Of a stretch of 64,000 nt of DNA, positions 804-60,600 are shown in pieces. The notes below the pieces were generated by a model. That model worked only from the letters and a program-made list of their open reading frames with translations. It was not told where the DNA came from and ran no database searches. Both the position numbers and the translations under genes were made by a program. The stretch is from Leucoraja ocellata (lineage: Eukaryota): assembly GCA_036785375.1 (NCBI GenBank), contig JAWMAR010000079.1:3224001-3288000 (forward strand), written 5' to 3'. The number at the start of each line of letters is the position of its first letter. The stretch's first letter is position 1.

Positions 804-1391
804 GTGTGTAGGAAGGAACTGCAGATGATGGTTCAAACAAAACATAGACACAAAATGTTGGAGTAACTCAGCGAGATAGGCCGCATCTCTGGATAGAAGG
901 AATGGGTGACGTTTCCGGTCAAGACCCTTCTTCAGGAGAGAGGGAGATACAGAGATAAGGATGTGTTAAAATGTAAACAAGGACAGTTAGACTGTTCGGA
1001 GAACTGGGAAGGGGGAAGGGATGGAGAGATGGGGAAAGCAAGGGTTACTTGAAGTTAAATAAGTCAATATTCATATCGCTGGGGTGTAAGCTTCCCAAGC
1101 TAAATATGAGGTGTTCCTTCAATTTGCGCTGGGCTTCACTCTGGCAAAGGCGGAGGCCCAGGACTGAAAGGTCAGTATGGGAAGGGGGAGTTAAAATGTT
1201 TAGCAACCGGGAGATCAGGTAGGTTTAGGCGGACTGAGTGGAGGTGTACAGCGAAACAATCGCCGATATGTGGAACAGCGGATACAGTAGATGAGGTTGA
1301 AGGAGGTACATGTGACCCTCTGTCTCACCTGAAAAGACTGTTGGGGTCCTTGGAGGGGAATGGTATAGGAATAGGTATTACATCTCCTGCG
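804..1391 (-). mobile_element. Penelope-like retroelement 3' fragment (GIY-YIG C-terminus, 3' UTR, terminal repeat with hammerhead motif)
   Basis: Minus-strand peptide [27 protein letters not shown]; reverse complement of 908-935 reads CTGAAGAAGGGTCTTGACCGGAAACGTC. Confidence 0.8.
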
Positions 1392-4300
1392 TCTGTGTAT
1401 TGTGTTAATGCTTTCAGTTTTGGTTTCTTTGTGGAATCTCATGATATTCTTGTCATGGCAATTTGGTATCAATTATGTTGTATTTTGCAAAATCATTATT
1501 TCAGTTAATTTCCTGGAATATTGTTTATATGTTGAGTTCATACGTTTAGGAAAAGGTGCTGTATCGAACATCATTGAACATTTTATGAAGTTGATAGATA
1601 TTTCTGATGCTGGAGACTGTTGATTAATTATCTTTTTATGCAGTTTTGGACCTGAAGGAAAAGAATGAAAAACAAGTTTTGTTTTTGTTTAGTTTTGAAT
1701 GTTACAAGTATAGTCATTGCAATAAGCTTGTACTGGTGTATTCCAGCTGCCAGCCCCGACGTCCTGCTCTGGTGATCATTTGAAATGATTACAAGGTCAA
1801 AATTTCAAACTTCTCCATGTTGTAAAGTCGAAAGTGTAACACACTTCATTTGAAAGACCGTAAATGCACTTTTGAAAAATGTTTATCGCTTCAGAATGGT
1901 TTCAGAATGTAATGCAGAGCTATATGTTAAGAAGGTAGACAAAAATGCTGGAGAAACTCAGCGGGTGCAGCAACATCTATGGAGCGACGGAAAAGAAGCA
2001 CCTGCAGTCCCTTCTTAAACATATATTTTAAGAAGGTTGTTTTATCACTTTGAAGCTGATATATTTTCCACACCCTAATGTTGATGCATAACAATGGACA
2101 GTTAGACTGTTCGGAGAACTGGGAAGGGGGAAGGGATGGAGAGATGGGGAAAGCAAGGGTTACGTGAAGTTAGAGAAGTCAATATGCATACCGCTGGGGT
2201 GTAAGCTTCCCAAGCTAAATATGAGGTGTTTTTCCTTCAATTTGCGCTGATTTGTCCAATGCTATCACGTTGTTCCACTTCCCAGCTCTTTAATGTAAGA
2301 AAGTAATTTAATACTACGGAAATTATTTTTAATGTTATGTCAAAAGATCAACTTTGAAAATGCAAGTAAAAATTGAAGTGTGTGTTTCTTAGTGATCATA
2401 AAATAAAAATATTCTATGGAGGAAGTCAGGCCTATATACAAGACAGAATGGAATAGACTGGTAGGGATTAGTTGGGGGGGGGGGGGGGGGGGGTGTTGGG
2501 ACAGTTAATGTCGAATAGAAACTATGGTATATGAATGCTGTAAACTCTGTGCTTTTAAAATAACTGCTTAATGTGAGAACTTTTTTTTGACAAGCTGTGG
2601 ACTGAATTGGCAACTAGAATTTGAGTTTGGAAATATGTTTCTAATAGTTTAAATAATTGGCTTGGGAGGATAAACTTACCGTTGCTCTCGTTTTGATACA
2701 AATGAACAAAATACCAGTTGTCTTGTCCTCTGTGTCTAAAGAAAACTGAAAGTTTGAATGTGAGCCAGACTTGAAGATTCTGGTGTCCCTCCTTTGTCTC
2801 ACCAAAATCTTGGCAGTAAAAGCAAATGAAGCTAAGTTGCAATATATTTGGAAAATGTATGTGCTAACTGAAATATTAACTGAAAAATCAAATGCGTCAT
2901 TTTTATCTTATTGAAATTGGAACTTTTATTTCTCCTGAGGCACTTCATAAGTCCATGAAAGAGGTTTACATTTGAATAGTATCACTCTCAGCCTCGGGAC
3001 GTCCCAGAAGACTCGCTCACAATCTGCCTTTTCTTAAGGCTTTCACGCTGTCCAGGTCTGCTATTGTAACATTTATTCTTTCTTTCTCTCCTTAAAGGTT
3101 CAAGTGTTTAATAATTATTTTTGCTATACATTATTACCATTAGGTCCGTAATGTCACAGCACAGCCTGTCACCTTGCAGTAGCAGCAGTTTCCTAATAAC
3201 ATTGTTATGGTGGCTGCAAGTAGGGCTTTCTGACAGGGCATACTCAAAGTTCATTGTGGTCTGGGTTGTAGGGATGGCTTGCTTTGTTTTAATGAAGTTT
3301 TGTGCAATGTGCTGCACACTCGAGCTCAAATTGACTGAATGACTGCTTCATCGGAAATGCACCTTGTGCTTCATAGCGGAGAACTTTCACTGACATTGAG
3401 CGGTCATGTACAATTGACAATTAGATTGCAATTAAATCTTGTTTAAATAAAAAAGTGGCAACAAAATTCTTAAATGACCTGACCTGAGCATAACCAACTT
3501 TATATCTTTGTTTTAAATTTCTAGCATCTGCAGTTTTTTTACTCAGACCACTGGTAATGTAACATGCATAATTGAAAAAGCTAGATGTTAGATCTATTAA
3601 ATGTGCTAAATGCGAGTACATTATTGCATTTCCTGTCTAAAGATAATACAATGGTGAACTATTTCCTTTTGTCGGTAATTTTGTCTGAAGTAACCGTAAT
3701 TATTGTTACAGCACTGACAGTTAGTTACATGCTATGTTTCTTCTGTTTGGTTAATCTGCTTTCATGTTCAATGCTGAAGTTAAACTGAAGGAGCTTGATG
3801 TCATTGTACAGCTGGAAATCAGCAAATGCACGGCTCTGCTAAATCAAGTTGCAGTTGAAGATTTTAGTCAAATCTTAACAAGAATAGTTTGGGTTGCATG
3901 CAGCTGAAGGTAGAATATATACACTTTATGGGGCACTAAGGATATTTAAAATCAGAGCCCCAAATATTATCCAGCAGAAATGAATAATTTGGATATACAG
4001 AAGTTATTTATTTTTTGATATAGAATGGTAAGCAGGAATTCTATTGATATCAGATACGAAGCAGGATTCCTACTGTAATTGGATTAGAAGAGGTCCAATG
4101 TGATGCAAGCTAAATAAGGATATAATATTTTGGACCATTGAATCAATTTATCAGTTTATATTTACACCAGTTTTTATAATAAATGCTAATGCTAAGGTCA
4201 TTTACTCCTTCCAAATTAGTATTGTTTCTTCGGAGTTGATTTAATACGTTAACTCTGGGTTATAGCATCCTTTATGAAGTTTTGATATAGATTCTTTAAC

Positions 4301-4555
4301 CTGAGGCGTTGACTGTTTCTCTTTCCACGGATGCTGCATGGCCTGCTGAGATTTTCGCCCTTTTTACAGATTCCCAGCATCGGCAGTATTTTTTTCCATT
4401 TTGAATGGTTTGTTTTAATTTGAAACCTTGAATTGATTTGTGCTATGGTACGGAATTCGCAATATAAGCATTGCTTAAATTCATCGCATCATCATTTCCC
4501 TATTAATGGTTTTCTTTTTCTCCTTTTTCCCCCATCCCTTTTATTCTTCCTAAAG

Positions 4556-5006
4556 CAAATGGTTATGAGCCTTAGAGTGTCAGAGCTCCAAGTGTTATTA
4601 GGCTATGCTGGACGGAACAAACACGGGCGTAAACACGAACTCCTGACAAAGGCACTGCATTTATTGAAAGCTGGCTGCAGCCCAGCTGTTCAGATGAAAA
4701 TTAAGGAACTATATAGACGGAGATTTCCACAGAAGATTGTGACTCCCACCGATTTGAGCCTTTCTTCTGTCCATGCAACTTCAGCTTCCATGACCACGCC
4801 ACTGTCGCCATCTGCTATCCCACAGCTCTCCTATGATGGGCATGCAACAACATCTCCGCTGCTTGCAGTTTCACTGCTGGGACCTAAACACGAGCTAGAT
4901 CTGCCACATCTGACATCATCACTCCATCCTGTCCATCCTGATGTAAAACTGCAGAAATTGCCCTTTTATGACATTCTCGATGAGCTGATCAAACCGACTA
5001 GTCTAG
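4556..5006 (+). CDS. PIAS1: PIAS1 exon 2 (SAP domain with LxxLL, start of PINIT region), 451 nt
   Basis: Polypyrimidine tract + taaag|CAAATGGTTATG; ends CTAG|gtaaga; peptide [30 protein letters not shown]...DELIKPTSL. Confidence 0.97.
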
Positions 5007-8000
5007 GTAAGAAACAAGTAAAAAAAGTATTGTAGCAATCACTGTAGAAATAAAAGGCATAATTTAGTAAATACAGAAATGGGAATATTGTATCCTAAAT
5101 TGAAGTCTCTGACATTTATGAAAGATAGAAATGAGGTATGATAAACATATTTTGTGATTTTTAAGATAAATGAGTGCAGATTGTAACTTTTGCATAGCAG
5201 TTCTAAATTCAGCTGTGTTTCAAAATAATGAATTTAATTCTGTGCTATACTTCTATATTTATGGCAAAACACATCAGTTTTGTATGCTGTTTTAATTCTG
5301 ATCTTATTATTCCAGAATTGAAATTGGCCAGTTTTTTGCAAAATATGCATTGTGCAACCTGAGCTATGTTCACAACTTTTACTTCTTGTCTGAGTTATGT
5401 TTTGAAGTTTACATGGATTCTTGTTGGGGGGGGGGTTAACAATATTTTACGGAACAGAATCTGAGTGACATGGTTGCGTATGAAGGAAACGTGTTCCAAA
5501 GATCCAGGCTCGATCCTGACCTTGGATCTGTGGAATTTGCATGTTCTGGTTTCTCCAGGTATTCCGGTCTCAACCTGCATGTCAAAGATATGCTCAGAAG
5601 TTGATAGGTTGACTTCAAATGTTCCTTTGTGACAACCAAAAGGGAAGTTGCAACTAAGAATAGTTGCAGGGCATCGGGGCAAAAAGAATGGTGCTAATGG
5701 GATTGTTCTGCGAGGAGTTAGCATGGATCCAATGGGCTGAATGGCTGCCTTCCATGTTGTTTTGATAAGTGAAGCAGGGAGTTCTCTTCGTGGAGGAGGG
5801 GTGGGGTGTTGGACAGAGGGTATGGGATTTATAGTTGCAATGATCTTGCTATGACCATATTGAATTATTTTACCTGTACCCTGTCAAATAAAACAGGACA
5901 ATTTTCCCCTTCTGGGATTTGGCCTGGATTTAGTAGTTGTTGGAACTAATATATTAGCTTGACATTTATTCCCAGATCTCATATGATTTCAATTGGAAAT
6001 TAAACTGCATTTTTTTCCAAAAGCTTTATAGTGCACAGTTGAAATCTTCAGCCTCTCTTTAAGACAACCAACTGTTCTGGTATGTCTTTGTGATTTCATA
6101 GAGTGGGATCAGTCCCTTCAGCCCACGATGTTGCTGCCACCTGTGATGCCATTTTGAACTGACCATCTGCCTGCATGCAACACATGCAACAGATAATCCT
6201 CCGATATTTTCGCCACCTCCAACGGATCCCACCTCTGGACACATCTTCCCATCTCCTCCCCTTTCAGCTTTCCGCAAAGATCGCTCCCTCCGTAACTCCC
6301 TGCTCAATTCATCCCTTCCCACCAAAACCAGCCCCTCCATGGTACTTTCCCTTGCAACCGCAGGAATGGCTGCACTTGTCACTTTAACTCCAGCCTCGAC
6401 TCCATCCAAGGACCCAAGCAGTCTTTCCTGGTGAGTCAGAGGTTCACCTGCACCTCCTCCAACCTCATCTACTGCATCCGCTGCTCTAGGTGTCAACTGC
6501 TCTACATCGGTGAGACCAAGCACAGGCTTGGTGATCGCTTCGCCCAACACCTCCGCACAGTTCGCATTAACCAACCTGATCTCCCGGTGGCTCAGCACTT
6601 CATCCCACCCTCCTATTCCGAATCCGACCTTTCTGTCCTGGGCCTCCTCCATGGCCAGAGTGAGTCCCACCGCAAATTGGAGGAGTAGCACCTCATATTT
6701 CGCTTGGCCAGTTTACACCCCAGCGGTATGAACATGGCTTCTCTAATTTCAGGTAGTCCCTGCTTTCTCCCTCCGTCCCCTCCCCTTCCCAGCTCTCCCA
6801 CAGCCCACTCTCCGCCTCTTCCTTTCTTCTTCCCACCCCCCACCCTCACATCAGTCTGAAGAAGGGTCTCGACCCAAAACATCACCTATTCCTTCGCTCC
6901 ATAGATGCTGCCTCACCTGCTGAGTTTCTCCAGCATCTGCCTGCATGTGATTTATGCACCTCAATTACATGCATATCTAAATTTATTTTAAAGACGTTGC
7001 TACCATATCTGCATCCACCACTTACCCTGGCAGCACAGTCCAGGTCGCTACCATTGTTTAAGCAAAACTTGCTTGTATATTTCCTTTAAATTTTCCTTCT
7101 CTCACTTTAAAGCTATACCTCCCAGCATTTGATATTTCCACCATGCAAAATTATTTCAGGTAAATATTAGTCCACTCTTTAGTAAGTTTGCAGACGACAC
7201 AAAAATTGGCAGGTATGGATTTTCTCCAGCTCCAGGCATTAATTCCTTCTTTGTCCTTGAGTGATCCTACACTCTCTTGTTGCCCTCTTGTTTCTAACGT
7301 ATGTGTAACGTACCTTGGAATTTGCTTCAATCCCAGTTGTCAAGGATGTTTCATGGCCCCATTTAGCCCTCCTGATTACCTGTTTGTTCTCTCCTGCTTT
7401 CTACATACTCTTATGCCTTGTCCAATTTCAAGTTTCTGAACCTTGCATATGTTTCCTTTTTTTTCTGATGGTTTCCTTTGGGTAGATTTCAACATCTAAA
7501 ACTTAAGATAAACCTCTTTCCTTCCATCATACTTCTACACAGTGTCAAATTTTATTAATTAGTCACGCTTCAATTCTTATTTACAACCTTTCCCTCATTG
7601 ATTCCACAACATATCTAGAAAATCATCTAGTACACATTTCATAAATTCTAGCTTTATTAAAGCAAAATTGGTTCAATTAATCAAAGGTTAAAGTTTTCAG
7701 TGATTACTGTAGACACCTGTTAAATGTAAGTTTCTTGATTATTTCAATATTTGAAACACACATTGGTAGCCTGTAAATATGTCTTATCAATGTTTGCTGT
7801 TTTCTTAGTTCAACTCAAATTAATTCTAGTTTTATATAATCTCCCAAACCAATATTATTTTCACTACTTCACTCTAATAATCTCTCCCTACATAATAGTT
7901 CTGCATCTCTCTTTTTGTCTGTGTACCCTTGCCAAATGGTATGGGTGAAATGCGGGCAGGTGGGTCGAGTGTACACAGGGCATCCCGGTCGACGTGGGCA

Positions 8001-11000
8001 AGTTAGGCTGAATTGCCTGTTTCTGTGCTGTGTGAATCCATGAAGCTATGACACCTTGAAACCATGTTTCCATGACAATTGGAATATAGTTTGCCTCTAT
8101 TTGTGCCATTAATTAATTTATCTAGTAGAATTTGTCTCAGGTTTTGTGTGCTGTAAAATGAATCCTTTTGAATTTCTTTCATTTTCAATGGTTCATTGGT
8201 CTTTTATTATCACATGAACTGAGGTTCTATGAAATTCTTTATGTGCATTCAGGTCAGTACAAACCCAAGTACAATCCAAGTTCCTCTTACTGGGCATTTG
8301 TTCTTGTGTTTGCTGACTCTATCCAGTTCTCCTGTCCTCAGGGTCGAGCAGGGGAGGAGCTCAGTGGCTTCCCTCTTCAGGCGGGTTTCTCAGCTCTGCG
8401 ATGAGCGAGCCAGGCCCTGCTACTGGGGTATGGCTGTTTGCACTGATGGCATCTGTTATGTGGCCTGACAGTGTCTCTCCCCCACCCATTCCAGCAAGGC
8501 CCGACGCTGCGTGCTCCCACCTTCATCCCCTCCCGGCCCGATGGTGCATGCAACCTGACAGTTCCCCTGTTGTTTTGGGAGCAGATTCCCAATCTCCACA
8601 TATGCCCTTTTTGAGAAGTAGTTTTCCGTTAACATGTGTATAGGAGAACACATGTACAGCTTTCTGTTAGTGAAGAGTTAGGGTGGCAGGATAGGGGAAT
8701 CCTAACTGACCAAGGATATTGAGTTTCTGGTAGGAATAAGGAAGAAATTGTGTGCAGTTTTGGTCTCCTAATTTAAGGAAGGACATTCTTGCTTTTGCGG
8801 GAATGCAGCATAGGTTCACCAGGTTAATTCCCGGGATGGTGGGACTGACATATGATGAAAGAATGGATCAACTGGTCTTATATTCACTGGAATTTAGAAG
8901 GAGGCACATAAAGGTTGATGAATCTCCAGCGTGACCAAGTGTATCCTAGGATATTGGGAAGCAAGGGAAGAAATAGTTGGGGCCCTGGCAAAGATTTTAG
9001 TTTCTTCCTTTTTCATGGGTGAAGTACCAGAATATTGGAGTGTGACTAATATTATACCTTTAAGTAGAGCAGCTAGAAAAATCCAGTAAACGACAGACCA
9101 GTGAATCTAACATCAAGAATGATTGTTACTCGCGGGGTTTCTGAGGATTTGTTTGTGTGAGATTATCTAAAATTTGATTTCTGACCAAGAAGATTGAGGA
9201 TTGAGCAGTGGACATTGTGTTCATGGAATTTAGATAGACCTTTGACACCATCCTGCATGGTAGACTAGTGCAGAAGGTTAGACTACATTGGGATCCTGCT
9301 TGAGAAAATTTGCTTGGTTGTAGGTAACAGAGTGGGTATGCTGGGACTGTTATCTCTGGAGTGAGATTGACTGAGGGATTGGCCTGTTTCTGTACTGTGT
9401 AACTGAATCTATATATAGTTTGACAATTAAAACCATACCTTTAATTGTACTAGCTTGCTAAATTCCTGGTGGAAGATGCATGTAAAATTTGGTTGAGGAT
9501 ACTGTGGCTGACAGAAGAATAGCCTCATGGCTCACCACTTACACAAGAGGAATGATCATTTGAATGAGGAACCTGAAGGAGTGTCGGTAATTGTGGGGCT
9601 TTTGTCTTAAACTTGGCCAAAATGGTGGAAAAATATTCAAGAACTTAGCGAGAAAGATGATTTTATTTTTTTAATTCTCAATTGCCGATGTTTTCTCTCA
9701 ACCTGTTATTTAATGCAGATTATGAGCTGCAGATGTATTGTCGACATAAATAATTCTTGAAGCGTGCCATTTGATCAGATTTGTGTGTAATAGGTTGGCC
9801 TCACTTTAGTTTAAGACTTTAGTTTCCAAATTGGGGGTGGATTGCAGCACATTTCACCATGTAAAGAAAAAGCACTTTGCCCTAATTTTCTATTGAAGCA
9901 GACTGCAGCATATTCAATGTTGGTCCTTTAGCTAAATGGTAGAGAGGACAGGCTAGACAAGTGGCTGAAATGTCAATGGGGAGCACTTTGGGACCAACGA
10001 CCATAAATCTATTAAATTAATTATGGAAAAGGATAGGACTAGGCCACAAGGAAAGTCCTGAATCAGAGAAAGGTTAATTTTGATGGCATTGACAGATGCT
10101 TGCAAAAGTTCATTAAGAGAGGCTGTTATCAGGTAATGGGGCATCTAGCTAATGAAGGCATAAGAATTTTAAGAATGAGATGGGAAGAGTTCAGCATTTA
10201 TTTTTTGTAGTGAAGAGCAAGATTAGGGGACCATCGCTGACAAGCTCTGGCCAGGAAAAAGGCGGTATATGTTTGCCACAGGCAGCTGGACTCCAGCACA
10301 TCCCTTAAGTTCATAAGTCATAGTAGCAGAAATAGGCCATTTGGCCCATTGAGTCTGCTTTGCCATTCGATCTATTTTTCCCATTCAACCCCTTTCTCCT
10401 GCCTTCACCTCATAACCTTTGACGTCCTTACCAATTGCGCTGAGGCCTAATGGAGCTGACGACCTCGAGGCTCCGGAGGCAGAGCACCGTCAGGACTCGC
10501 TCTGAGCTCGCTCCTGTGAGGGTGGTCCGACTCAGGGCTGGAAGAGGCTGGGACGCTCCCGTGAGGACGGCCAGCCCGAGGGTGGAACGAGGCTCCCGTC
10601 AGAGCGGCCGAGCTCGGGAAGGTGCGGCGCTGGCAGCCCGAGGGAGGTTCGGCGCCCAAGTCGGGGCGGCCCGGTCCGGGGGGAGAAGCGACGCCCAAGT
10701 CGGGGCGGCCCGGTCCGGGGGAGGTTCGGCGCCCATGTCGGGGCGGCCCGGTCCGGGGGGAGAAGCGACGCCCAAGTCGGGGCGGCCCGGTCCGGGGGAG
10801 GTTCGGCGCCCATGTCGGGGCGGCCCAGCCCGAGGCTGAAGACGGCACAGTACTCACGTGAGGGTGACTGGGACGGTGTTCTGGCGGCGGTGGCCTGAGT
10901 CCGGGGTTCGGCCGCGGGCCAGCAGCTGTTTCTACAGGACTGGTGGGCGGCAGCTTCAACCACCCCGGGCCGCGGTGTTTGAGCCGCGGGACTGTTCTTA

Positions 11001-11229
11001 ACATCGCCCGGGGGGGGGGGGGGGGGGGGGGTGGGTATCGCCCCAGCGCAGAGGGAGAAGAGGAGGGAAGAGACTGTGACCTAAGACTTTTGCCTCCACC
11101 ACAGTGAGGAGATGCTGGGTGGACTCACTGTGGTGGATGTTAATGTGTGTTTATTGTTGTTTTATTGTATTGTATTATATGTTGACTGCTGCAATTTCGT
11201 TCAGACTAAGTCTGAATGACAATAAAAGG

Positions 11230-11277
<48 letters not shown>

Positions 11278-14200
11278 AAGAACCTATTAATCTCTGCTTT
11301 AAAAATACCCAATGGTTTGGCCTTCACAGCCATCTGTGGTAACAAATTAAAAAGGATCACCACTCTCTGGCTAAAGAAATTCCTCCTCATCGCCATTATG
11401 AAGGTTCGCCCTTTTATTCCAAGGCTGTGCTGTCTGGTCCTAGGCTCTCCCTTTATTGGAAATGTCCTCTCCATATCAATTCTATCTATGCCTTTCATTA
11501 TTTGGTAGGTTTTAACGAGACTCCCTCCTCTATACTCCAGAAAGTACAGGCTCAGAGCTCCTCGTATGTTAACCCAATCATCCCCAGGATCATTCTGGTA
11601 AACATCCTATGGACCCTCTCCAATGCCAGCACATTCTTCTTCAGATATGGGACCCAAAACTGCTCTCAAGATTCCAAATGTAGCCTGATCAGCACCTTAT
11701 AAAACCTTTGCTTTTATATTCTATAATCCTCTCTAAATGAATGGTAACATTGCATTTGAATTCCTTATTGCCAACTCAGCCTGCAAATTAACCTTTTGGG
11801 AATCTTGCACCAGCATTCGCAAATCCCATTATATCTTCAATTTCAGAATCCTCTTCCCATTTATAAAATAGTCTCTGCCTTTTATTCTCTATCAAAGTGC
11901 AAATCCTTACAAAGAGTGCAGTTCTTTTGATCATAGCTGCACAATGTGGGTAGGTAGAGAAGAGTCTGTATAATCCTATTCGTACTGGATGATGCTGTTG
12001 ATATATAGCTTTTGTGGGTGTAGAAATAATCTACTATGCTACACATTGTCGTGTTGCTTTTGTATCTATTTAAGCATTAGGGCTCTGTTTCCAGCACTTT
12101 GTTTTAATCACAAGGAAGATTCTGCCAATGCTGGAGCAACTCAGTGGGTCCGGCAGCATCTCTGGAGATCGTGGACAGACAACACTTTGGGTCGGGACCT
12201 TTAGACTGATCTTATGATGCTGCAGATTACAAGCTTTAAAAATAATTAAAAGTGTATTGATTTTTTAAAAATCTAATAGTATGGAAAAGTCTGTTAGTTC
12301 AACAGCACGAATGACCTGAGGTTGCTGAATTGTCAAAGTGTAACTATACTTCAAAGTTGCACAAAAAAGTCACATCTGCCAGATTTTTCCATAAGCCATT
12401 AGGGGAGCAATATTTGCTTTTATCTGAAGATACCAGATAGTGCTCATAAAAATAGAAACCTGGCCCCTGTTATTTTAAAGGGAGCACATGAAACAAAAGA
12501 GCCAGATGCCGATCCATCTGGCTTTCCAGACAATTGGATATTGAATGATTGGAGTTTTACTATCTTGCAGTACAGTTTTGAACATTTATCTTTTGGGGAA
12601 AGTCAAAACTTTCTGTTTCTGAACCCTATCCAGCATTGGCAAAAAGAAAATGCTTATGTACAAGGACTTAGGGGAAGGGCGGCACCCTGTCAAGTTGTCT
12701 TGGATCCTAGACAAGGAATGAGTGTCCATAAGGCACAACAGATTGACTGGAGAACCTTTGTCCAACCTGGTGTTGGAGCTTCGCAAAAAGAGTGGACTGC
12801 TGAGAGCATATGATATGGAAGAATTTAGAAAAATAGTAACCTTTTTCTAATTATATTTACATAGTGGAAGTTAGAACATTGCATGCATTAATAACTTGTA
12901 TATTAGTATGCTTTCAATCTTGGATTCCAGTTTCTAGACGAGAAGGGTAAAATGAGCCTAGCTGCTCAATTTTGTGCTCAACTGCAGTCAAATGATTCCA
13001 GCTGGGCATGAAACCTGCAGTCTTCCAAGGTTTATGGAAATTTGCAGTGCAGTTTCCTGAAAAATATCTTTAAAATTGCAACATTGTCTGACTATGTTTG
13101 GATCAATTAAATAGGATCTAAACAATCTTGTGCATCCTAACTAACCATACTGAAGAATCTTTAAGAGTATAGTGTACAAGGCAGGAAGTTGCAAAAGAAT
13201 GTTCAGTCATAAACATTTACAAATTTGGCTCAGAAAACAAAATAGAATGATTGATTTTTTTTTAAAGGAACCAAGAGGCATAATTTTTTAATTTGTTACT
13301 TTTAAAGGTTCAATAAAATTGGAAGGAATTGGGCATTAGAGGGCTTCTTACACTAGAATGTATAAACTTAAATGGCCTGGCAAATCTATTTCCAAACTTT
13401 CACCTACCCATTTGTGTGGTATGTTGGGTGGTATTTACATGTTATGGAGGAGCAGGGAATTTGTGGATGCATTTTGATGCCATTATCCAAACTGCACATA
13501 AATAATGGTAAGGACTTCATTGCTACTACGAAATCAGTCCAATATTTAATTTGTTTAGAGTAATTGCATTGTTCCAGAACTTGGAAAAGTTATTTTATTT
13601 TTGTTTGTAATTTGACAAGAAATGTGAGATTATGTGGGAGGGAAATTCACATGCCTTTCTTTCACATAATATTTTACTATGAAATGCTGGGTACACCTAA
13701 ATTTAGACAAAAAGCGTGCATATCAAAAGTAGAGCATTTTGAAATTATTATTGAGTTCATGGATAATTGTGCTGTGGTGGACTGCTTTCCAATTTTTGAC
13801 CCACCGAGCATTTAGTTTTACAATTGTTGTTCCTGATTACCCTATAATTCTCCAGCCATGAGCTCCTTACCAGTTTCCATTTTCTTTTATGATTCCAGTT
13901 ATCCGCTGGTTTGCCTGAAGTTTCCAGTTACGGGTGGAATAAAATTGCTTTGTGTTGTCCACCTTGTAATTCCTTGGAAATCCAAAATAATTACTTCCAA
14001 GCTCTCAATTGTAACACAGTAGGAGGATGATTAGCTTATAGATTCCATACTAATTCTAAGACCAGTGCACACTGCTTTAACCATCCCCACCTCACACCCC
14101 GTGGCCTTTCAATTTTTCCCTTTCTGGTTCTTCTATAGCTCTCTTTATCAAAGTGATTTAATAGTGACCTGACAGTGCATTCCAAATGCTAACAACTCAG

Positions 14201-24611: not shown

Positions 24612-24682
<71 letters not shown>

Positions 24683-48600: not shown

Positions 48601-51600
48601 TATCACATTTCGTTGATCTAGCAGACCTACATGCACACTAATTCAGGGGCGATGCTACTCACTTGCTGATGTGGATGTGCCAAATTGACTCTTGGGTTAT
48701 GCCTGTCTTGTGGTAGCTTATCCTCAATCTAGTATTTAAGTGGGAGGTGAGGGCATTATGGTAGTAGATGTCCTTTGCCTCATTTGAGGGTTTCCACTAT
48801 ATTCCATTTGATGCAGTAATTTTGCCACTTGCATTGAGCCAGTCTCTTTTGCTTATCTTTCCCACAGTAGGGTTAATAACTCTGGCGTGACTCGCAGAGT
48901 TGATAATTAGTTCAGTGATTAGCTGGTGGTGATTCTTTTTGAGTGTAGCCTTTTGACTCTGCACTTTCTGGCTTTCATCACCAACGGCATCAAAACCATT
49001 CAATGAACTAGTTTGTAGAAAACGTAGAACTATTATCTCCCCTCGGGAACATGGTCAACCTGGTGCATTAAAAAAGGAAGCTAGCAGAGAGGATGAAAGC
49101 AATGCCTTAATTAGCTAAAGCAAATGCTGCACCAATCAGTTTTCGATCAGTCTTTGTGATGTGCTAACACAAACTGCCTTGGGCCCCACTATCAGAAGCT
49201 TACACCTCTCAAATGGAGCATTGGTGAAGTCATCACAGCAGATTAATTTGTAAAAAAAAAATCTATTATATAGGCAAATGTATTTATTGTTCAGCAATGA
49301 CCAATTTGTCTGTTTTTACTGCTGCAGGCTCTGCAGTAGTATTGGAGAAAGCTGAGAGAAGGTAGACAGGTTGCCAACAAATGTGCTTAATGTTTTGAAA
49401 AGAAGCACACCAGAACGCAAGTCCTGTAATTCCATCATCACTATCATTCTAATTATGGCAGGAACATGCACCATTTTCCATTTGAGCTATCTCCACAAAT
49501 CTGTTTACATCAACCACAAAGGTTGGCATGAAATGTGAACATCTGGCCCATTCCACCAGGTGCCACAATTCAGGAATGATGCAGTTGCAAGATTTACATG
49601 AGCAAATTTAATTTTACACTTATTATTTGAAAGATATTTAATTCTTCCAGAAAATTCTTAGAGGCCAGTGATAATGTGAATTCTGCATTTTACAACCAAA
49701 TCCAAAAATGCCAGCAGTTTGTTTGAGTAGCCTGGCAGGTATTTATTTGCCGGAGGCACCAGGTAATATCTCTTCCCAAAGGTGGCCTTTCTAATCAATT
49801 GTTTATGCTAACGCCTGTGCCATAACGCAAAGGACTTGATGAATAATCTACAAGGTGACACAATTTACAAAATTGTGCCAAAATATTTTTCAATCTAGTT
49901 TGAATTTTCCATAATGATAGGATTGATTCAATGATTTTAATTGGAGAGGCTGAGTGGGATAAAGAAATCAATGCACTTAAGCCACTTAGTTGCAGAAGTA
50001 AATTTGTATCCTTTTTCTTCTGCCAGTTTGTCGGCCGGTTTGTTGGCTTGCTAAAAATCAGTTCACAGTGTACTTCGAACATGCAGAAAAGCAAATAGTA
50101 GCAGCATTAACTAATTTTGCCTGGGACAGTGAGAAGTATTTTGTAGCATTTAAAATGTAACATTGAAACAGATAAAATGTGAAGAAGGTAATGGAGTATA
50201 CTATTGATGTGAGGAGAGTTGACTATGATTCATTGACAAATGTAAGGCAGAAGACAAGCAGTGGTTAGCACTTAAAGAAAAAACATATGAATTGTAAAAG
50301 AAATATGTTCCTTCAAGAGCCAAAAACCCATAAGGGAACGTGGTTCTTCCATACCTCATGGGATAAATTAGAGTACTAAATCAAAAGAGACTTATGAAGT
50401 CACCTGAAATTTCAGTGCATCTGAGATTGGGAGCATTTTAGAACTTGGGGAAAGAAATAAAGGCATATAGAATGCAAGATAGATTATGAGAAGCATAATA
50501 ACACTCAATTAGGTTTTATAGGTACGTAAAAAAAAAATAGACTAGCAAGAGCAAATATAGCCCCCTTGTAGACAGGACAATTTATAATGAGAAATAAAGA
50601 AATGGTAAAGGCATTAAAAGAAACGATAATCTACATCCCATAGCCATGTAACTAAAGTCACTCCCATTCAGTGGATGTCTCAATAGTCAACTTTCAGTGT
50701 CCTAAAGCTTCTGGAATTGTCCCTGTGGTTTGGAGAGCAGCAAACGTGACCCCCAATATTTGAAAGAGTCATAAAGAAAATATCTACTGACCTGTTTGCC
50801 CAAAATCTATAATAAAAGATAAAATTAAACTACAGAACACCTTGAAAGTGATAAGGAGGTTAAAGCGGGGTTAGCATAGATTTACAAATAGAAAATTGTG
50901 TTTGATTTATCTTTTGGATTATTTGAAGATCTGACCAGTGAAGCAGATGTAAAGGAAACAGTGGATGGAGCATATATAGAGCTTTGGGTGAACAAGGTTA
51001 GAGCATGTGGAGGAGAGAGAAATAAACAGGTTATCGAGCAGAGAGCAAAGTGGAAATAGATCTTTAATGGGTTGACAGGCTGTGACCAATTAGATTCTGA
51101 GGGGATTGTGGTTGGGCCACAGCTATTTGTAATCTATATCAGTCACTTGTATTTCCAAGTTTGCAGCTACTACTAAACTGGGCATGATAGTCAGTATGTA
51201 AGTGGGCTTTGGAGGAAATGGTCAAACTGGGTAGGTGGGTGCACACATGGTATATAATGTGGGAAAAAAAGTGAGCACAGCCAGATTGAGCAACTTCAAA
51301 CAGTATTTGTCAATGCTTAGAGATTGTGTGGGACTGTGTTTCAAGGCCATTGAATGCAAAATGTAGGTACAGTAGGAGATTGGAAAGACAAACGGCATAT
51401 TAACTTTTATAGCAGGAGGATTTAGTTATAGGAGTAAGGAAATACTACTGTAGTTGCACAGGGCCTTGGTGAGACTGCGATGAGAATATTGCCTGGTTTT
51501 TGTTTTCTTTCCTTAGTGGAGGACCTTCGTTGCTGCCCTACATGCCAAGAAGCATAATAGGCAGTAAGAAAAGTAAGAATAAGAATTCAGACTGAGGAAG

Positions 51601-54600
51601 GGTCTCAACCCGAAACATCACCCTTCTCTCCAGAGATGCTGCCTGTCCCGCTGAGTTACTCCAGCACTTTGTGTCCAACTTCGAACCAAGCATACCAAAT
51701 GTCTATCTACTTGTGTTGCCACTTTCAAGGAGTTTTAGACTTGGACTAAAAGATCCCTCTGTACGTCAGTGCTTTTAAGAGTTTTGCCATTAATTACGTA
51801 TTTTCCCTTTACAATTGACCTCCCAAAGTGCAACACCTCACACCTATTTGGATAAAACTCCATCTGCCCATTCTCAGTCCATTTGTCTGCTCCAACTTTT
51901 ATTAAAAAAGTAATCTAAACTAAAATGTTAACTCCTCTCTTCACAGATGCTGCCTGACATGCTGAGTATCTCCAGTATTTTCTGATTTTGAGTTCCAGCA
52001 TCTGCAGCTTTTTTACTCTCAGTACAATATAATGATGTTCTCTTTGCTCAATGCTGATGTATGGGGTACCTTGAAGTATCTTTTGTTAGAGTGAATCAAT
52101 GCAGTTCACACTTAAACTTTAGAACCACTCTTGAGTATAGGAGAACAGAAGGGAAAATTACACATCAGTATTCAAGCAATAATAAGAAAGAACGTTATTG
52201 AAAATTCTAATGTAAAAATAAAATTGTGGAATTGATATGTGGCAGATAGTTGGCTTACTTAGTTATAGAATTTATTGCTGAACACTGACCTGTTTCAGTT
52301 TCCCATCTGTATGGAACTGTTAAGTGTGAGGTTATTTTTAAATCTATGGTTCTTGCTGCACTACAGTTAAAAGAATGGTATTCAAGTTGGAAAAGCTATT
52401 GTAATTTTAACCTTGCCCTTTGCACCTTTCTCACAAACGTTTGCTCTTGGTTACTTGCCAGTTTGGCTTGAGATTTGATTCATGAAGTGACTGCAACTCT
52501 TGTACGCTGCAACAGTGAAGACTGCCATTGGGATGTTTAATGTTGCAGCAAGGGTATTGCAGTGACGTGTCCCTTTGATTATCTTGAATTTCCATTGATA
52601 TTCAACGAATATCAATCATAAGAGGCCATTATTGATTGTCCCTTTCTTCATTATTGTTTGGCTGATCCTAAAACCACCAAAGTAATATAGCATATTAGAT
52701 TGGGGTTGAGTCTAATGCATTTTTTTCTAAAGAAAGATGCTTGATTGTAGTAAATGAAAACTAAATTGGCAGGCATGCTGACTACTTTAGTTTTGAGGTT
52801 TACATTGAAGGTTGGTGATTATTGAGGAAGCTAAAATGTTGCAGTGCCAAAATTAACAAGCAACATAATGATGACTACAATAATGGCAGCTGAAGGTGGT
52901 GGGATCCCAGAGTTGTAAAGGACTTAGAGAGAGCATATGAGATGCTTTAACTAAAATCGTATCAAACTCTTGAACCAGGATCTATTCATATTCATATTAG
53001 ACAATTGTAGTCCTTCACCAAGAAAGATGTTTGGGGGGGGGGGGGGGGGGGGCAATATATAGTTTACTGATAACTCACATTTTAGATTTTAGAAAAAATG
53101 GAGTTGGGGAACAGAAACAACATGAATTATTGCATGGCAAAATGGGCTTGAGGGGTTAAGTAGCCAATGTTGCAAACTTAGAAATGAAACTGAGACTTTT
53201 CTCAACTGTGTGATTTATTTCTGTCCCATATGCGATGATTGGCTGCAACTAGACCGTTGGTTTTTGTATATGTAAACATTAGAAGTACAAGATCAAGTAC
53301 AGAAAGTGCTTCACAATTTACAGTTGGCAGAATTAGAGATATGATAGTTTGTAGTTATAAATACTGAAGTAGTAATCTGAATTCACGATACCGCAGTGTG
53401 TCATATCCAACCATGGCAGCTGTGAAGATTATATTTCGTGCATCTGGAATGAGCGAGTTTCAGTAATGTCGACCTTTATCATAAATGGTTGTGTTGGACA
53501 ATTGTAAGTTCAGTTTAATAGTAAGTAACAAGTATATCCTGCAATAACCGGATTGTCATTAAACATGTTTGATAATTTCCTGTGCTCAACTATCCCGTAA
53601 TATCTCTCTGAGGCACTCTCTTTAAGGACAATTTAAGTGGAGAGCAAGCAATGTCTTCAGCTATTGCTAGCTTCAGCAATGTCTTGTAAATGAATAATTA
53701 ATTATTGGGGTGTGTATGGCAATATTAAGCTTGTTGGGTGTTTTTTAGTTGTATAATTCTGCTTATTAAATTCTTCACATAGCGCATTGAATAAATTGCT
53801 CATTGTATAAATGTAGAGAGGTGTGATATCAAGACCAAAGGTGGCCCAGCTTGCATTGAACAATTCTTCATTGCAGGTTAAAGTTTAGAAACGGCCATGA
53901 TCTGGCAAATTCCTAGAAATTCAAATATTGCTAACAGTTGAATAGCTTCGAGATATAGTTACAAACGGTTTAGTAATGATAGTTGGAGAGAATAACTTCA
54001 TTGATCTGTGAATTATTTTCATAAAACAGATTATTCATGGAAATCCTCAGTTGTTGCACGGACTGCGATGAGATTCAGTTTAAGGAAGATGGGGCGTGGT
54101 CACCGATGAGAACGAAGAAAGAAGTTCAGGAAGTGAATTCTTCTTATAATGGCGTGGATGGTACGTACTTTAGGTGAACAAATATGCAAAGTAAATGCAA
54201 AGAACAAAGGAGGAGTCTGTGTGTGTGTGGGGGGGGGAGGCGTAGACGACAAAGGGGGACCTTGCGCGGGATACTTTGTAACATTTGTCAACACCCTTTA
54301 TGTGGCAGCTATTTGCATACCTTGGGTATGCAAACATAGAATTCCACTGACTTGTCATGTGACAATAAAGGAAATAGAGTATTCATTCATCTCAAGGAGT
54401 GAAGTTAAGTTATAAAATGATAATTACATTAAATCCTATGCTGGAGAAGGATTCTGTTGTCTAAATCACGTGGGATGATAACTAAAGTGAAAGGCACCCC
54501 ATCTTACATTCCTGCAGATGAACAAAAACTGCTATAATAATCACCCAGGAAACAAGCTAAATGTCAAGCCAGCCTTGGATTGAAATAAGACAAAAATGCA

Positions 54601-57600
54601 AGGGATATTAAAATGCAGAAGATGGAGACAAATTATAGTGAAGCTGACATATAGTGCACTTCACTAGTTTACAGCAATATTTGTGAAACTGCACCCCAGA
54701 ATTAGTGCAAACACAAAAAATAAATGTAATTTCCTGATAAAGATTGTGTTCCTCAATCTCTGATTTTCATTGCAGTTTCAAATCCTAGAAGAGTTTGTTA
54801 TTATTACATGAAATTCAAATAACAATCATATTGTGTTTTGGAAGTCCATTAAATTTTGTTTGAGAGCCAGATTTGTTGACGGAGAAAGTCCACAACGGGA
54901 ATGAACCTGCCCAGAGATGAAAGCAGCATATATACCAGGAAAAGTGAATATTTATCAAAATCATCGGCGCCTATTTGCTGACAATTAAATATCTTTGTTT
55001 CAACAAAAAAAATATGGACTGTTTTCATTTATTTGTTAGGTGCATGTCCAAGCTTATCCGACCAGAGACATTCGTCACATAATAGTAGGAAAGTTGAAGT
55101 GATTGATCTGACACTTGACAGTTCATCAGAAGAAGAAGATGATGAGCCACCGGCAAAGAGATACCCAGCAATTTCTTCTCCGTCACCGCCCATTAACAAA
55201 GGGTAAGCTTTGGGAGGGATCTCAGTCTTGCGATGCTTTTTATATATTTGAGATGAGTTTGTACTTTGGAAAAATAAACTCCATGGCAATTTGAAAGCTG
55301 GAAATGCATGCAAAATAAATATTTTTTTCCTTTTCAAATACGGATTGCTGCTACATACAGTGTTCATTATCCCCCTCCACACAGGGATTCTCTTCAACAT
55401 GGTTTTATTAGTCTTTCCAAAGCTTAAGGACTTTGTTCTTGTATGCATTTGTCATTCCTATTTAGAGCATCTTGGAACGCTTTACTGTATATATGTCAAT
55501 TGCAGTCTGCTGTTTCTGTAATTAAAGCGATTGCAGCAAAATTATCGGTGTGTTAAGCTTAACTGCTGATAATTAGGGGTTTTCTTTCTCCACTCAAACT
55601 CCAAGGCACTGACATTTGGTGTTAACCATTACTAACTTGATTTTCCTAAAATGTGTCCTTAATTTTCCCTCGTCTCCTCCCAGCAGAGTACTTTGCTGTG
55701 ACATAACTCCATGCTATCTGTTCAAATGAGTTGTGTAAATCCAGGCAATAATTGCATGACGTTTATAAAAGAAGGCTCTTTGATTATTTAAATCTAACTG
55801 CAGTGAAAATCTTTAAACATATGCATATATGTAATGCTGTTTAAATTAAAGATGATCAAACAATCCGGCTGCATCTTTAGTCATCTAATTTAACCTTTGC
55901 TAAAAGCACTTGAAAAAGATCAAAAGCTTTCCAAAAGAAGGCTCTAATCAGTTGCATCAGGCGTAAAGATTATACTTGTAGGACAACTTCATAGCCACGA
56001 CTGAAGCACACACAGTAACAATGTTTTTTTTGCTCCTGGTTTTCAGAAAATAGAATCACACAGCAATACAGTACAGAAATAAGTCCCTCAGCCCATCTTA
56101 TATGTGCCAACCAAGTTGCTTACTAGTCTAGTCTTATTTGTCTGCTTTCGACCCATATCCCTCAGAACCGTTTCTATCAGTATTTATCCATTGTAAAACT
56201 ATTGTACCCATCTTTACTACTTCCTCTGGCAGTTCATCCCACATACCCACCACCCGCTGTGTTGGGATAAAGGTTTTGCCTTGGGTCCCCTTAACTCTCT
56301 CTCCCTCCACCCCCACCTTCACCTTAAATCTATGTGGTCTTCACCACCGTCCTGGCACCTTCTCTGCTAGAACTACCACCCTATTGGTGTTCAGAGGCAC
56401 CACTGGGTCTTTGACACCATGACCAAGTGACCTCTCGTACACTGACTGGATAGTTGTCAGACTAACTTTCAAGTTTATATAGTTGAACAGAGGTAACTAA
56501 TAGACCAGCGTTGATATTAGTATGATATTAGCTGATATTATATAAATGACTTGGATATAAATGTAAATGAACTGGTGAGTAAATTTGCTGACGACATTAA
56601 AATTGGAGGAGTTGCAGACAGTGAGGAAGTCTGTCAGAAGATACAGTGGGATATCGATCAGCTGCAGAAGTGGGCAGAGAAGCGGTAAATGGAGTTTAAC
56701 CCAAACAAGGGCAAGGTGGCGCACTTAGAGGTTGAATGTAAGGGGAAAGTGCACAGCCAATGGCAAGACCCTTAACACCTTGATGTGCAGAGGGATCTTT
56801 GAGTTCCAAGTTCATAACTCACAGCACAAGGAGATAGGGTGATATAGAAGGCAATTGGTATGTTTGCCTTCATTGCTAGGGGCATTGAATATAAGATTAT
56901 GATGCAGTCCATAGGGTTTTGTTCTGGCTGCATTTGGAGTATTGCCTGCAGTTCTGGTATCCCATTAGATGTGCAGAGGTGCTTTACCAGAATGCTGCCT
57001 GGATTAGATGGTTTCATCTGCAGTTTTGGATTGTTTTCTCTGGAGATTGAGGGTAAACGATAGAAGTATATAAAATTATGAGGCCAGAACCCTTTTCCAC
57101 ATGATGGAAATGTCCAACACTAGAGGATATATCTATCAGGTGAGAGGGGGAAAGTTTAATGGAGATGTGCAGAGCAAGTTTTTCTTTTTATTTTTACATT
57201 GTGGTGGCCTGGAACACATTGCCTGGGGTGGTTGTGGAGGCAGATATGAGAGTGGCGTCTAAAAAGCTTTTAGCTAGGCACATGGAAGTGCAGGGAATAG
57301 TGGGATTTGGATCGTGTACAGGCAGATGAGATCAGTTTAACATGGAATCATATTCGCCACAAACATTGTGGGCTAAAGGTCCCGTTCCTGTACTATTCAG
57401 TGTTTGTTATTTAACCTATTTCATCAGTCTTGTTTCTGGTCTTTTGTATAAATTGACCTTGATTTTCGGCTTTCTTTCATGTAGGGTTTTAAATCTGCAC
57501 CATCAGACATCACCAGTCACGAGAACTCCCAGCATACCTACTCTGGACACAAACTTTATTTCTGCTCCTTTTCAAGACTACCGTCATTCTTACCATTTAC

Positions 57601-60600
57601 CAACGCTGCCGTATGAATTACAAGGTAAGCTGCTTGTAGCAAGGTGTGATTGTTGTTGAACAAATTAACAGCATTTAATGAAAAATCAATAATGGAATGA
57701 ATGTCTGCTCAGAAAGTGCTCCATTTTATTGACGTCTCTGTGCAACTTAAATTTTTATTTTCATTGAAGCCAACAAAGGAACAAAATCATTTTTGTTTGA
57801 ATGTTGGTGTGATTCTTTGAAATATTTTGTTTTAAGTCATAAAATGTAGGTGCCCGGTTCCATTCGGTTCTCATTTCTCCCTCCCCTAAAGCCATTAACA
57901 ATTTAGCTCACTTAAGTAGTTCTCAGTGGCTGCCTTACCTCACTCTCAGTGCATCATTAGGTGTTGGAAAACTGTTTGACTTCTTCATAAGCTTGGCACA
58001 ATGATTAGTCATATGGACATTCATCTATGACTATGGCCTGCACCCCAAAAATGACCCAATCCCTTTCCCAGATGCTGTATTGTTAACCAACACCATATTT
58101 AGTTTAGTTTAGAGATACATCACGGAGACGGGCCCTTCGACCCACCAAGTCCGCACCAACCTGTGATCCCCCGACACCAACGCCATCCTATAATTTTACA
58201 ATTATATCAAGCCAATTAACCTCAAACCTGTACGTCTCTGGAGTGTGGGAGGAAACCGGAGCTTCCCGGAGAAAACCCACGCAGGTCATGGGGAGAAGGT
58301 ACAAACTCTACAGATAAGCAACCATAGTCAGGATCGAACCCGGGTCTCCGGCGCGGTAAGTTAGCAACTCTACCGCTGTGCTGCCCATGCCAACAATATA
58401 TTGTGTATAGTGTTACTGATACATAGAACAGTACAGCACGAGCAGGCTGTTCGGCCCAGTAATGTCTGCTGAGAATGATGCATCTCTTATCTACCTACAC
58501 ATAACCCATATCCCTCTATTCCCTGCATATCCATCGTCCTATCCAAAAGTTTCTTAAATGCCCAAACAACGTATCTGCCTCAACCACACTCCTAGCAGCG
58601 CAGCCAGGTACTCGACATCCTCTGTAAAAAAAACTTGCCCCACACATCATCTTTAAACTTAGCTCCTCTCACCTTAAAGCTATGCCCAGGAGCGGAAAAG
58701 ACTGCAAAAAGTAGTAAACAATGCCCAGTCCATCATCTGCTCTGACCTACCTACCATCGAGGGGATCTATCGCAGTCGCTGCCTCAAAGGCCTACAGCAT
58801 CATCAAGGACCCACACCATCCTGGCCACACACTCATCTCCCCGCTACCTTCAGGTAGAAGGTACAGGAGCCTGAAGACTGCAATGTCCAGGTTCAGGAAT
58901 AGCTACTTCCCCACAGCCATCAGGCTATTAAACTCAACTCAAACAAAACTCTGAACATTAATAGCCCATTATCTGTTTATTTGCACTTTATCTGTTTATT
59001 TATTCATGTGTGTATATATTTATATAATGATATATGGCCACACTGGTCTGTTCTGTATTATATTCTGTTGTGCTGAAGCAAAGCATGAATTTCATTGTCC
59101 TATCTGGGACACATGACAATCAACTCTCTTGAATCTTGCCCTCCAGTATATATTTTTTCCATCTTGAGAAAAAGGTTCTGATTGTCTACCCTATCTATGC
59201 CTCTCATAATGCTATTTACCTCTATCAGGTCTCCCTGCAAACTGGCATACCAGAGAAAACAGTCCACATCTATCCAACCTCGCCCTGTAGTTAATACCCC
59301 AGAATCCAGAGATCATTATGGTAAACATCCAAAGACTTTGCATCCTTCCTGTAATAGGGCGACCAGACCCTCAGGCAATACTCCAAATGTGGCCTAGCCA
59401 AAGTCCTATCAATCTGCATCAAGTTACATAAATGCTAAACATTGTAATTTTCAAACTACTTAGTAAATAACTTTTTTTAATTTTCCAATATGGTTTTTGT
59501 TCTCTCACTTCAATTGAAATTGTTAACCTGCTCCAAAATTTTGTTGCCAAAAACCATCTCGTAATCTCTGATCCCTAACCAGTCTGAAGAAGGGTCTCGA
59601 CCCGAAACATCACCCTTTCTTTCTCTCCAGAGATGCTGACTGTCCCACTGAGTTACTCCTGTTTGTGTCTATCTTCAGTTTAAACCAGCAACTGCAGTTC
59701 CTTCCTACTCATAATCCCAGTAACAAGAGCACAGTAAACATGTGGCTGTGTTTTGTGGGTTGCTCTCTTGCAATTGGACCTGAACAGCGTAGTTACTTGA
59801 TCATGTTCTCTGATTAATGGTGATGGCGTTTGAATACCAATGAAACCTGGTGTCCACAATTCTTCAAGTTTGTGCACATTTGACTTGTTTTTTCTAATAT
59901 TTTCCTTTCTTTGAACAGGTTTAGATCTATTTCCCTTCCTGCAAGGGGACAATCAGGTATGTAACATGCCAATACGCACTTTTGCAATTGAAACCTTATT
60001 TTAATCATAAATTGATCAATGATTTCTCATTGGCTTCAGCAGATTTTGATTTGTTTAAGTTATCGTAGACATTTTATTAATGAGAACTTTTATAAGGACA
60101 TCTCAGGATAAGGGGGAAGTCTTTTAGGACCGAGATGAGAAAACCATTTTTCACACAGAGAGTGGTGAATCTGTGGAATTCTCTGCCACAGAAGGTAGTT
60201 GAGGCCAGTTCATTGGCTATATTTAGTAGGGAGTTAGATGTGGCCCTTGTGGCGGTGCAGGCTCGAAGGGCTGAATAGCCTACTCCTGGCACCTATTTTC
60301 TATGTTTCTATGTATAAATCTAGGCACTTCCATATGCAGCCCAACATTTCAAAACAAGTTAGATTCAAATAATATTGCACTATGTTTGAAGTATGTAGAA
60401 ACAAAAGTTGATTAGGAGACCTGACTAATCTGGAGAACATGGATAGGTGGTGTTTCGGGTCGAGAGACTGATGAAGGGTCTGGCCTGAAATGTCACCTAT
60501 CCATATTCTACAGATGCTGCCTGACCTGCTGAGTTACTCCTGCATTGTGAGATGCTGCCTTAAAGCAGCAGCTCTTCTGGGGGAGGTTCTCCCCTAATGC

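Follow-up and report, generated by a model that had tools for sequence, protein, structure and literature searches.

The hammerhead-like repeats scattered through this 64-kb window (the whole stretch of DNA analysed) are very probably the 3' ends of a highly abundant Penelope-like retrotransposon (PLE), which likely belongs to the Neptune clade and has the known minimal type-I hammerhead motif in its terminal repeat. Under this reading, in which we have high confidence as a whole, the element's own reverse transcriptase-endonuclease likely inserted them as truncated, solo or inverted copies, which have since decayed and are predicted not to cut PIAS1 RNA. The copies in the window are likely to be ordinary fossils. 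The known association of minimal hammerheads with PLE terminal repeats is extended here to a new, skate- or ray-like host group, and no description of this skate- or ray-lineage family came up in a literature search that did not extend to Repbase, Dfam or the majority of subscription journals.

Results

A single repeat family dispersed through the introns of PIAS1

The first-pass annotation had named 14 sites at which the motif recurs. A regular-expression scan, a repeat search and a two-round profile search placed all 14 in one family with a repeat unit of ~95-130 bp. The final profile gave 27 matches at ~20 loci, or one per ~3.2 kb of the window, in agreement with the abundance that had been claimed. 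Seven loci lie beyond the named sites (2016-, 4280+, 19941+, 21571-, 28140-, 40991+ and 51923+), and the reversed window, searched as a control with the first profile, yielded a single 5-bit match. In addition, a minimal-hammerhead descriptor matched the window six times, compared with a mean of 0.035 and a maximum of 1 in 200 shuffles of 2-nt blocks. No hammerhead family appeared among the seven matches of the Rfam covariance models to the window at E<=5, and these models may overlook a motif that lacks helix III. The miRNA families among the Rfam matches fall on inverted pairs, with scores far under the gathering cut-offs. Viral contigs contained no match to the hammerhead core pattern.

The repeats lie in the PIAS1 gene, as judged from the SAP-domain exon at 4559, whose best named matches (96% identity) are PIAS1 sequences from Scyliorhinus and Callorhinchus. 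No exon 1 turned up in the first 4.5 kb of the window. As had been proposed, the repeats are spread through the introns of this gene, with 24 of 27 matches intronic and none within the 13 mapped exons; the other three precede the first mapped exon and presumably fall in intron 1. The matches divide into 15 on the plus and 12 on the minus strand (binomial p=0.70). The features of the window are as follows.

808..1394, minus strand: 5'-truncated PLE with a broken GIY-YIG remnant (1048-1394), pyrimidine-rich 3' UTR, hammerhead (935-908; core and ACGU retained, G10.1-C11.1 pairing and helix I lost) and long tail
1931..2261, minus strand: endonuclease end with UTR (2090-2261), followed by a tail piece (2016-) that lacks a hammerhead core
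4280..4398, plus strand: old divergent copy without the CUGA box, long tail
4556..62749, plus strand: PIAS1 host gene, 13 coding exons mapped, exon 1 not located
6183..6936, plus strand: 5'-truncated PLE with linker and GIY-YIG to 6736, UTR, hammerhead (6856-6883; G12A, G16.2A) and short tail
12127..12214, minus strand: strongly decayed copy, 26% off the majority sequence; its site at ~12185(-) is badly degenerate
16281..16498, both strands: head-to-head pair; the arm 16409-16281(-) keeps its core boxes, carries C15.2G and has a long tail, the arm 16423-16498(+) lacks the CUGA box
19666..19782, both strands: head-to-head pair; 19757(-) begins in stem II, without the CUGA box (site ~19750(-))
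19935..20049, plus strand: copy beginning near the GAAA box, long tail
21455..21571, minus strand: old divergent copy without the CUGA box
28072..28119, minus strand: tail-only fragment (locus 28140-)
31207..31788, plus strand: partial tandem of a hammerhead (31209-31236; ACAU, stops 3 nt past the cut site), endonuclease 3' end (31249-31506), UTR, second hammerhead (31698-31725; AUGU) and short tail
32923..33091, both strands: head-to-head pair; plus arm (~33003) with a 6-nt insertion within the CUGANGA box
40991..41054, plus strand: tail-only fragment
43330..43514, both strands: head-to-head pair with both cores damaged, long tail only on the plus arm; site ~43400 badly degenerate
45462..45896, minus strand: endonuclease end (45830-45896, by DNA similarity), UTR, hammerhead (45539-45512; G12A, C15.2U) and short tail
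47999..48184, both strands: head-to-head pair, core with A9G and C15.2U
51587..51683, plus strand: solo copy with intact core and ACAU, no helix I
51923..52007, plus strand: old copy without the CUGA box, long tail
59566..59708, plus strand: copy with a short UTR piece, intact core, ACAU, 2-bp helix I and long tail
60429..60549, both strands: head-to-head pair; plus arm with intact core and AUGU, no helix I

The repeat is probably the 3' terminus of a Penelope-like element

At four loci (935-, 6856+, 31698+ and 45539-) the 3' end of a GIY-YIG endonuclease (EN), a pyrimidine-rich UTR, the hammerhead and the tail follow one another in this order on one strand, and at a fifth (2016-) EN and UTR lie upstream of a tail piece, again on the same strand. 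These GIY-YIG remnants, upstream on the hammerhead strand, support the suggestion that the repeats derive from Penelope termini. A GIY-YIG endonuclease that is C-terminal and has a CCHH motif is present upstream of the terminal repeat; the Pfam match to GIY-YIG (E 2e-4) falls slightly below the curated cut-off. The EN remnant shares 77% identity with a Leucoraja protein, its best match, which makes the host a cartilaginous fish and probably a skate or ray. Its identity to a 902-aa protein with RVT_1 and GIY-YIG domains, with which it aligns from residue 721 of that protein onward, is 46%. Neither an RT domain nor a full-length element was found within the window.

PMC8557442 gives a CX2-5CxxC linker before a C-terminal EN as the mark of the Neptune clade. 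A CX4CxxC linker is intact in the close relatives P0121, P0122, P0123 and P0129 and partly mutated in the window copies. Since these relatives combine that linker with a C-terminal EN as described, they point to Neptune, to which the element likely belongs on sequence grounds. Features that PMC8557442 and PMC3846280 describe for PLEs include truncated copies in inverted orientation, solo pseudo-LTRs and a 30-40-bp tail that is optional. We also considered the UTR, pyrimidine-rich and ending in CAG, as an intron like that of Drosophila Penelope; this idea is unsupported, no such joint being seen among the 15 matches listed (there are 254 more).

The majority sequence fits a minimal hammerhead motif that no copy preserves in full

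The majority sequence consists of a CUGANGA box, an extra A, a 4-bp stem II, GAAA, ACGU and C17. It fits the consensus in Fig. S3 of PMC4209133, so the earlier identification as the known minimal PLE hammerhead with an ACGU palindrome stands. Calling the copies ribozymes goes too far: none of the 14 that span both core boxes has all four of core, stem II, ACGU and helix I, and the shortness of helix I, 2 bp, had been overlooked. All invariant core bases are kept in seven of the 14, at 935(-), 16406(-), 31209, 31698, 51592, 59584 and 60468, and only 935(-) among these also keeps ACGU. This palindromic 15.1-16.1 segment has been lost from most copies through CpG decay; position 15.2 is C in 66-77% of contigs and reads from public runs.

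Stem II comprises 4 bp, including G10.1-C11.1, with 90% of cells paired and no covariation. Helix I (GU:AC) has only 2 bp, with 46% of cells paired over four positions and, again, no covariation. For comparison, we used 126 metagenome motifs with the same core, from at least 122 loci; helix I has 3-6 contiguous pairs of varying type in 93 of these motifs. These metagenome loci served solely for comparison and gave no blastn match to the tail or UTR of the window repeat.

Decay of sense copies fits neutral CpG loss

Every sense copy had been said to carry at least one change. This is true of all nine core-spanning sense copies, yet it is equally true of all five antisense ones, and the accompanying hint that sense copies had been selectively disabled finds no support in the counts: changes per motif position amount to 21/250 in sense and 27/136 in antisense copies, an antisense excess driven by two old copies, and orientation is balanced at 15:12. 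CpG positions have changed in 39 of 123 cells, and non-CpG positions of the tail in 89 of 660; the decay weighs on CpG sites in copies of both strands. With six CpG positions and a change rate of 31%, ~10% of copies would be expected to remain unchanged, and nine changed sense copies therefore require no selection. Their decay fits neutral CpG loss, and we reject selection against sense copies in this window.

Non-CpG core positions have changed in 11 of 139 cells across all 14 core-spanning copies, compared with the 89 of 660 in the tail (p=0.09). When four junction-damaged or heavily decayed copies are dropped, a partly circular choice, the remaining ten give 1/100 in the core versus 54/462 in the tail (p=0.0003). 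Some stretches of the tail equal the hammerhead core in conservation, and better conservation of the core boxes is suggestive only.

Predicted folding and the activity of the master element

Nearest-neighbour prediction for the majority sequence with its tail pairs the core with bases directly downstream, leaving the closing pair of stem II at P ~0.005 and the 2.1:1.1 pair at P ~0, whereas stem II is predicted to close with P >0.5 in 66 of 89 distinct metagenome motifs. RNAalifold over 16 copies returned no consensus structure, and pair counts for the hammerhead fold and the tail stem revealed no covariation above shuffles. The core-sequestering hairpin had a borderline covariation score (24/500 shuffles), which we do not count as evidence. 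The ribozyme of an anole element, as described in PMC11167929, cleaves only with protein present, and the poor predicted fold of the majority sequence is for this reason no proof of inactivity. It seems reasonable to suggest that an active master element would cleave solely as a dimer, via the ACGU palindrome, and that its motif would probably need protein for refolding, because of the 2-bp helix I and of the predicted pairing between the core and the bases downstream.

Alternatively, the motif could be a relic in this lineage, unable to cleave even in the master element and retained merely as part of a terminal repeat bound by the RT protein, a reading that concerns activity and not origin. 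The master motif may itself be crippled, given a helix I shorter than in 93 of the 126 metagenome motifs. The unfavourable stem II and 2.1:1.1 probabilities point the same way, as do the RNA ends, which do not pile up at the cut site, and the in vitro insertion of the anole element, which is independent of cleavage (PMC11167929). However, the anole ribozyme, too, depends on protein, and a 2-bp helix I has been published for the PLE hammerheads of Drosophila virilis, Culex and Oikopleura (PMC4209133). Furthermore, N7 varies (A/G/U) while the boxes stay constant, and the single change in 100 non-CpG core cells of the ten better-kept copies speaks against a relic, although the difference weakens to p=0.09 over all 14. 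We consider a relic possible, if on balance unlikely.

Copy ends suggest possible uncleaved templates

The 3' ends of the 27 matches, placed by local alignment, form two classes ~35 nt apart: counted from the presumed cut site, 12 lie at +50 to +69 and another 10 at +82 to +99; the interval from +70 to +81 is empty, and five are shorter. A distal tail motif occurs in 11 of the 27. The tail of the anole element marks two sites at which RT starts internally (PMC11167929). By analogy, reverse transcription would begin at either of two tail sites and would mostly halt early, often at the 5' edge of the ribozyme, and the element's reverse transcriptase-endonuclease would insert the truncated, solo or inverted copies, which would decay afterwards. 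The window contains head-to-head pairs at six loci, three of them with a long tail on one arm only, an arrangement described in PMC8557442 and PMC3846280, and a partial tandem at one. The six inverted pairs place long double-stranded hairpins in the host pre-mRNA, as inverted repeats would anywhere.

Among core-bearing copies without UTR in the window, seven start at -5 to +2 of C3, five at inversion junctions. In public contigs, loose 5' ends pile up at 31694-31696, at the CAG just before the core, and the flanks at 31695-31696 are heterogeneous and A/T-rich; none of the best 24 of 2,738 loose ends lay before the cut site. Short copies that begin at the 5' edge of the ribozyme, not at the cut site, suggest uncleaved templates. 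The CAGT just before the core is initiator-like. A speculative and, as a whole, rather unlikely model would place the hammerhead at the extreme 5' end of the RNA of an elasmobranch Neptune-type element, a few bases past CAGT, where the 2-bp helix I and the core-sequestering hairpin would keep it locked until the element protein binds; RT starting from the tail would run off the uncleaved 5' end and generate very many ~100-130-bp solo copies. If this were true, the 5' ends of solo copies would be a fossil record of uncleaved RNA as template, which would bear directly on what purpose PLE hammerheads serve. Only two leads seem worth keeping, the clustering of 5' ends and the prediction of a locked fold.

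Short copies resemble truncated elements

The earlier observation that most copies lack an ORF holds, with ~15 of 20 loci free of any ORF remnant. The interpretation placed on them, as retrozyme-like and non-autonomous, finds little backing: there are no tandem arrays, and short and EN-linked copies share weakly supported groups. None of ten tandem-repeat matches in the window involves the unit, and the sole same-strand pair is split by an endonuclease fragment. A tree of 22 of the 27 copies, which has no strongly supported branch, mixes the EN-linked and short copies, both of which occur in two of its three groups and in the unresolved remainder. The short copies look like truncated or solo pseudo-LTRs.

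We then compared region 31240-31830, at 80% likeness, with two contig runs of related organisms, in which 117,863 and 126,452 contig records matched. Summed contig depth over the hammerhead was ~8x that of the highest endonuclease bin, although such depth is not a copy number and divergent EN is under-counted. In two raw RNA runs (related organisms, 1-6% read, many copies pooled) molecule ends did not pile up at the cut site or at any other place, weak evidence that agrees with the negative finding in the anole element, and the poly(A) run covered the motif about equally on both strands. A single-cell run showed an 8:1 strand skew, which we set aside because oligo-dT priming near 31616 would account for it.

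If the short copies formed a separate non-autonomous family (retrozyme- or SINE-like), transcribed on its own from CAGT and mobilised in trans by the PLE, one would expect the many loci without ORF remnant, the excess depth over the hammerhead and the 5' ends at 31694-31696, together with the few contigs that carry head-to-tail core repeats (joints 31726-31729 to 31694-31695). The depth gradient, however, is predicted by 5' truncation alone, and the 80% threshold under-counts divergent EN and UTR. The lack of a tandem array in the window, the mixed tree groups and a unit of only ~95-130 nt, compared with 170-400 nt in tandem for retrozymes in PMC7229834, also argue against such a family, which we regard as improbable. 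Truncated or solo PLE ends remain the preferred explanation.

No copy is predicted to cut PIAS1 RNA

The hammerheads at 31209 and 31698 are the only close same-strand pair of intact cores in the window, 489 nt apart; with ACAU and AUGU they could share a helix III of four Watson-Crick pairs, with helices I of 3 and 2 bp. On the PIAS1 sense strand, the 47999..48184 pair is predicted to form a long hairpin whose cap consists of helix I and stem II (P 0.43-0.55 and 0.975, respectively, for 48045-48184). Nevertheless, it is very improbable that some sense intronic copies cut or once cut PIAS1 pre-mRNA, with selection removing or disabling them, and that 31209 and 31698 are still a functional double hammerhead: the double-hammerhead fold lies +21 kcal/mol from the free ensemble (computed without an active control), the core at 48095 carries A9G, reciprocal CpG decay yields a complementary helix III pair half the time, and sense copies, at 15:12, show no depletion and have decayed less than the antisense ones. 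The window copies are therefore predicted, from these models, not to cut PIAS1 RNA, and we would be most surprised if any of them were active against it in context.

Comparison with known systems

The family is so large that it would be a good statistical test bed for asking if PLE hammerheads are cleaving in vivo and if RNA that has been cleaved ever gets copied. Set against the Neptune-clade PLEs of Craig et al. 2021 (PMC8557442), the window has no RT or full-length copy, and the linker cysteines are partly mutated. With non-LTR retrozymes (PMC7229834; Li et al. 2026, bioRxiv 10.64898/2026.07.22.740005) the family has in common non-coding repeats with type-I hammerheads and kinship to PLE pseudo-LTRs, and retrozymes are reported there from one chondrichthyan genome. 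Retrozymes, however, are tandem, carry a hammerhead in each unit and are expressed as circles, whereas the window copies are dispersed, shorter, often inverted and partly joined to PLE ORF ends. The Poseidon element of Anolis carolinensis (Frangieh et al. 2024, PMC11167929) resembles the family in its two 3'-end classes, which define a tail, in its pseudo-LTR hammerhead and in the absence of RNA-seq ends at the cut site; its clade is probably a different one, and Poseidon has been assayed, whereas the window family is known from sequence.

The PLE hammerheads of Cervera and de la Pena 2014 (PMC4209133) have helices I of 2-5 bp, mostly 3-5, compared with 2 bp here, and the window family differs from them in the predicted core-sequestering hairpin formed with its tail. 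No chondrichthyan is included in Table S1 or Fig. S3 of that study, which describes the motifs as weakly active even as dimers. In common are CUGANGA, an extra base before stem II, G10.1-C11.1, GAAA, ACGU in place of helix III and the GUC triplet. The published and the present motifs also share their genomic habit: dispersed and mostly single, tied to truncated PLEs, with nearby opposite-strand pairs, and present in thousands per vertebrate genome (~4,000 in coelacanth and ~9,000 in Xenopus, mostly single).

Helix I and the repeat tail

In older copies of the repeat in the window (4280-4398(+), 21455-21571(-), 51923-52007(+) and 16406(-)), the cleavage triplet is followed by RACU(G), which would form 3-4 bp with the upstream CAGU, a pairing that requires the accommodation of one additional base. 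Helix I may be atypical throughout this lineage. Downstream, at about +22 to +54 from the presumed cut site (e.g. window 48145-48177), the best-conserved block of the tail is closed by a 6-bp stem in which 90% of cells are paired. Pair counts detected no covariation in this stem, which is a candidate protein-binding or RT-start element.

Endonuclease remnants and other repeats

The following features were located in the window:

46782-46969(-), decayed GIY-YIG remnant
10444-11170 and 39945-40660, oppositely oriented pair of related GC-rich inserts containing tandem units of 38-39 bp
36876-37181, inverted repeat, 118-nt arms, 89% complementary, 70-nt spacing
21625-21881, 39586-39855, 58098-58395 and 60649-60914, second dispersed repeat, ~250 bp, TTTAG units at its start

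No hammerhead or tail match was found in the vicinity of the GIY-YIG remnant. Two endonuclease-end/UTR segments, 936-1131(-) and 2090-2249(-), separated by 1.1 kb, share 160 bp at 94% identity, reflecting either a local duplication or a partial tandem. The inverted repeat lies outside the hammerhead-bearing Penelope-like family, and the TTTAG-initial repeat is probably a SINE.

Related genomes and metagenomes

Because single public contigs from related organisms join the cut-site region at 31726-31729 back to 31694-31695, very short head-to-tail core dimers are present elsewhere, in related genomes. Among the metagenome motifs sharing the same core, L024, L027, L029, L046, L060, L075, L094 and L116 continue with G/C-U-A/U after the ACGU palindrome and begin helix I two bases later, representing a variant with a longer predicted helix III.
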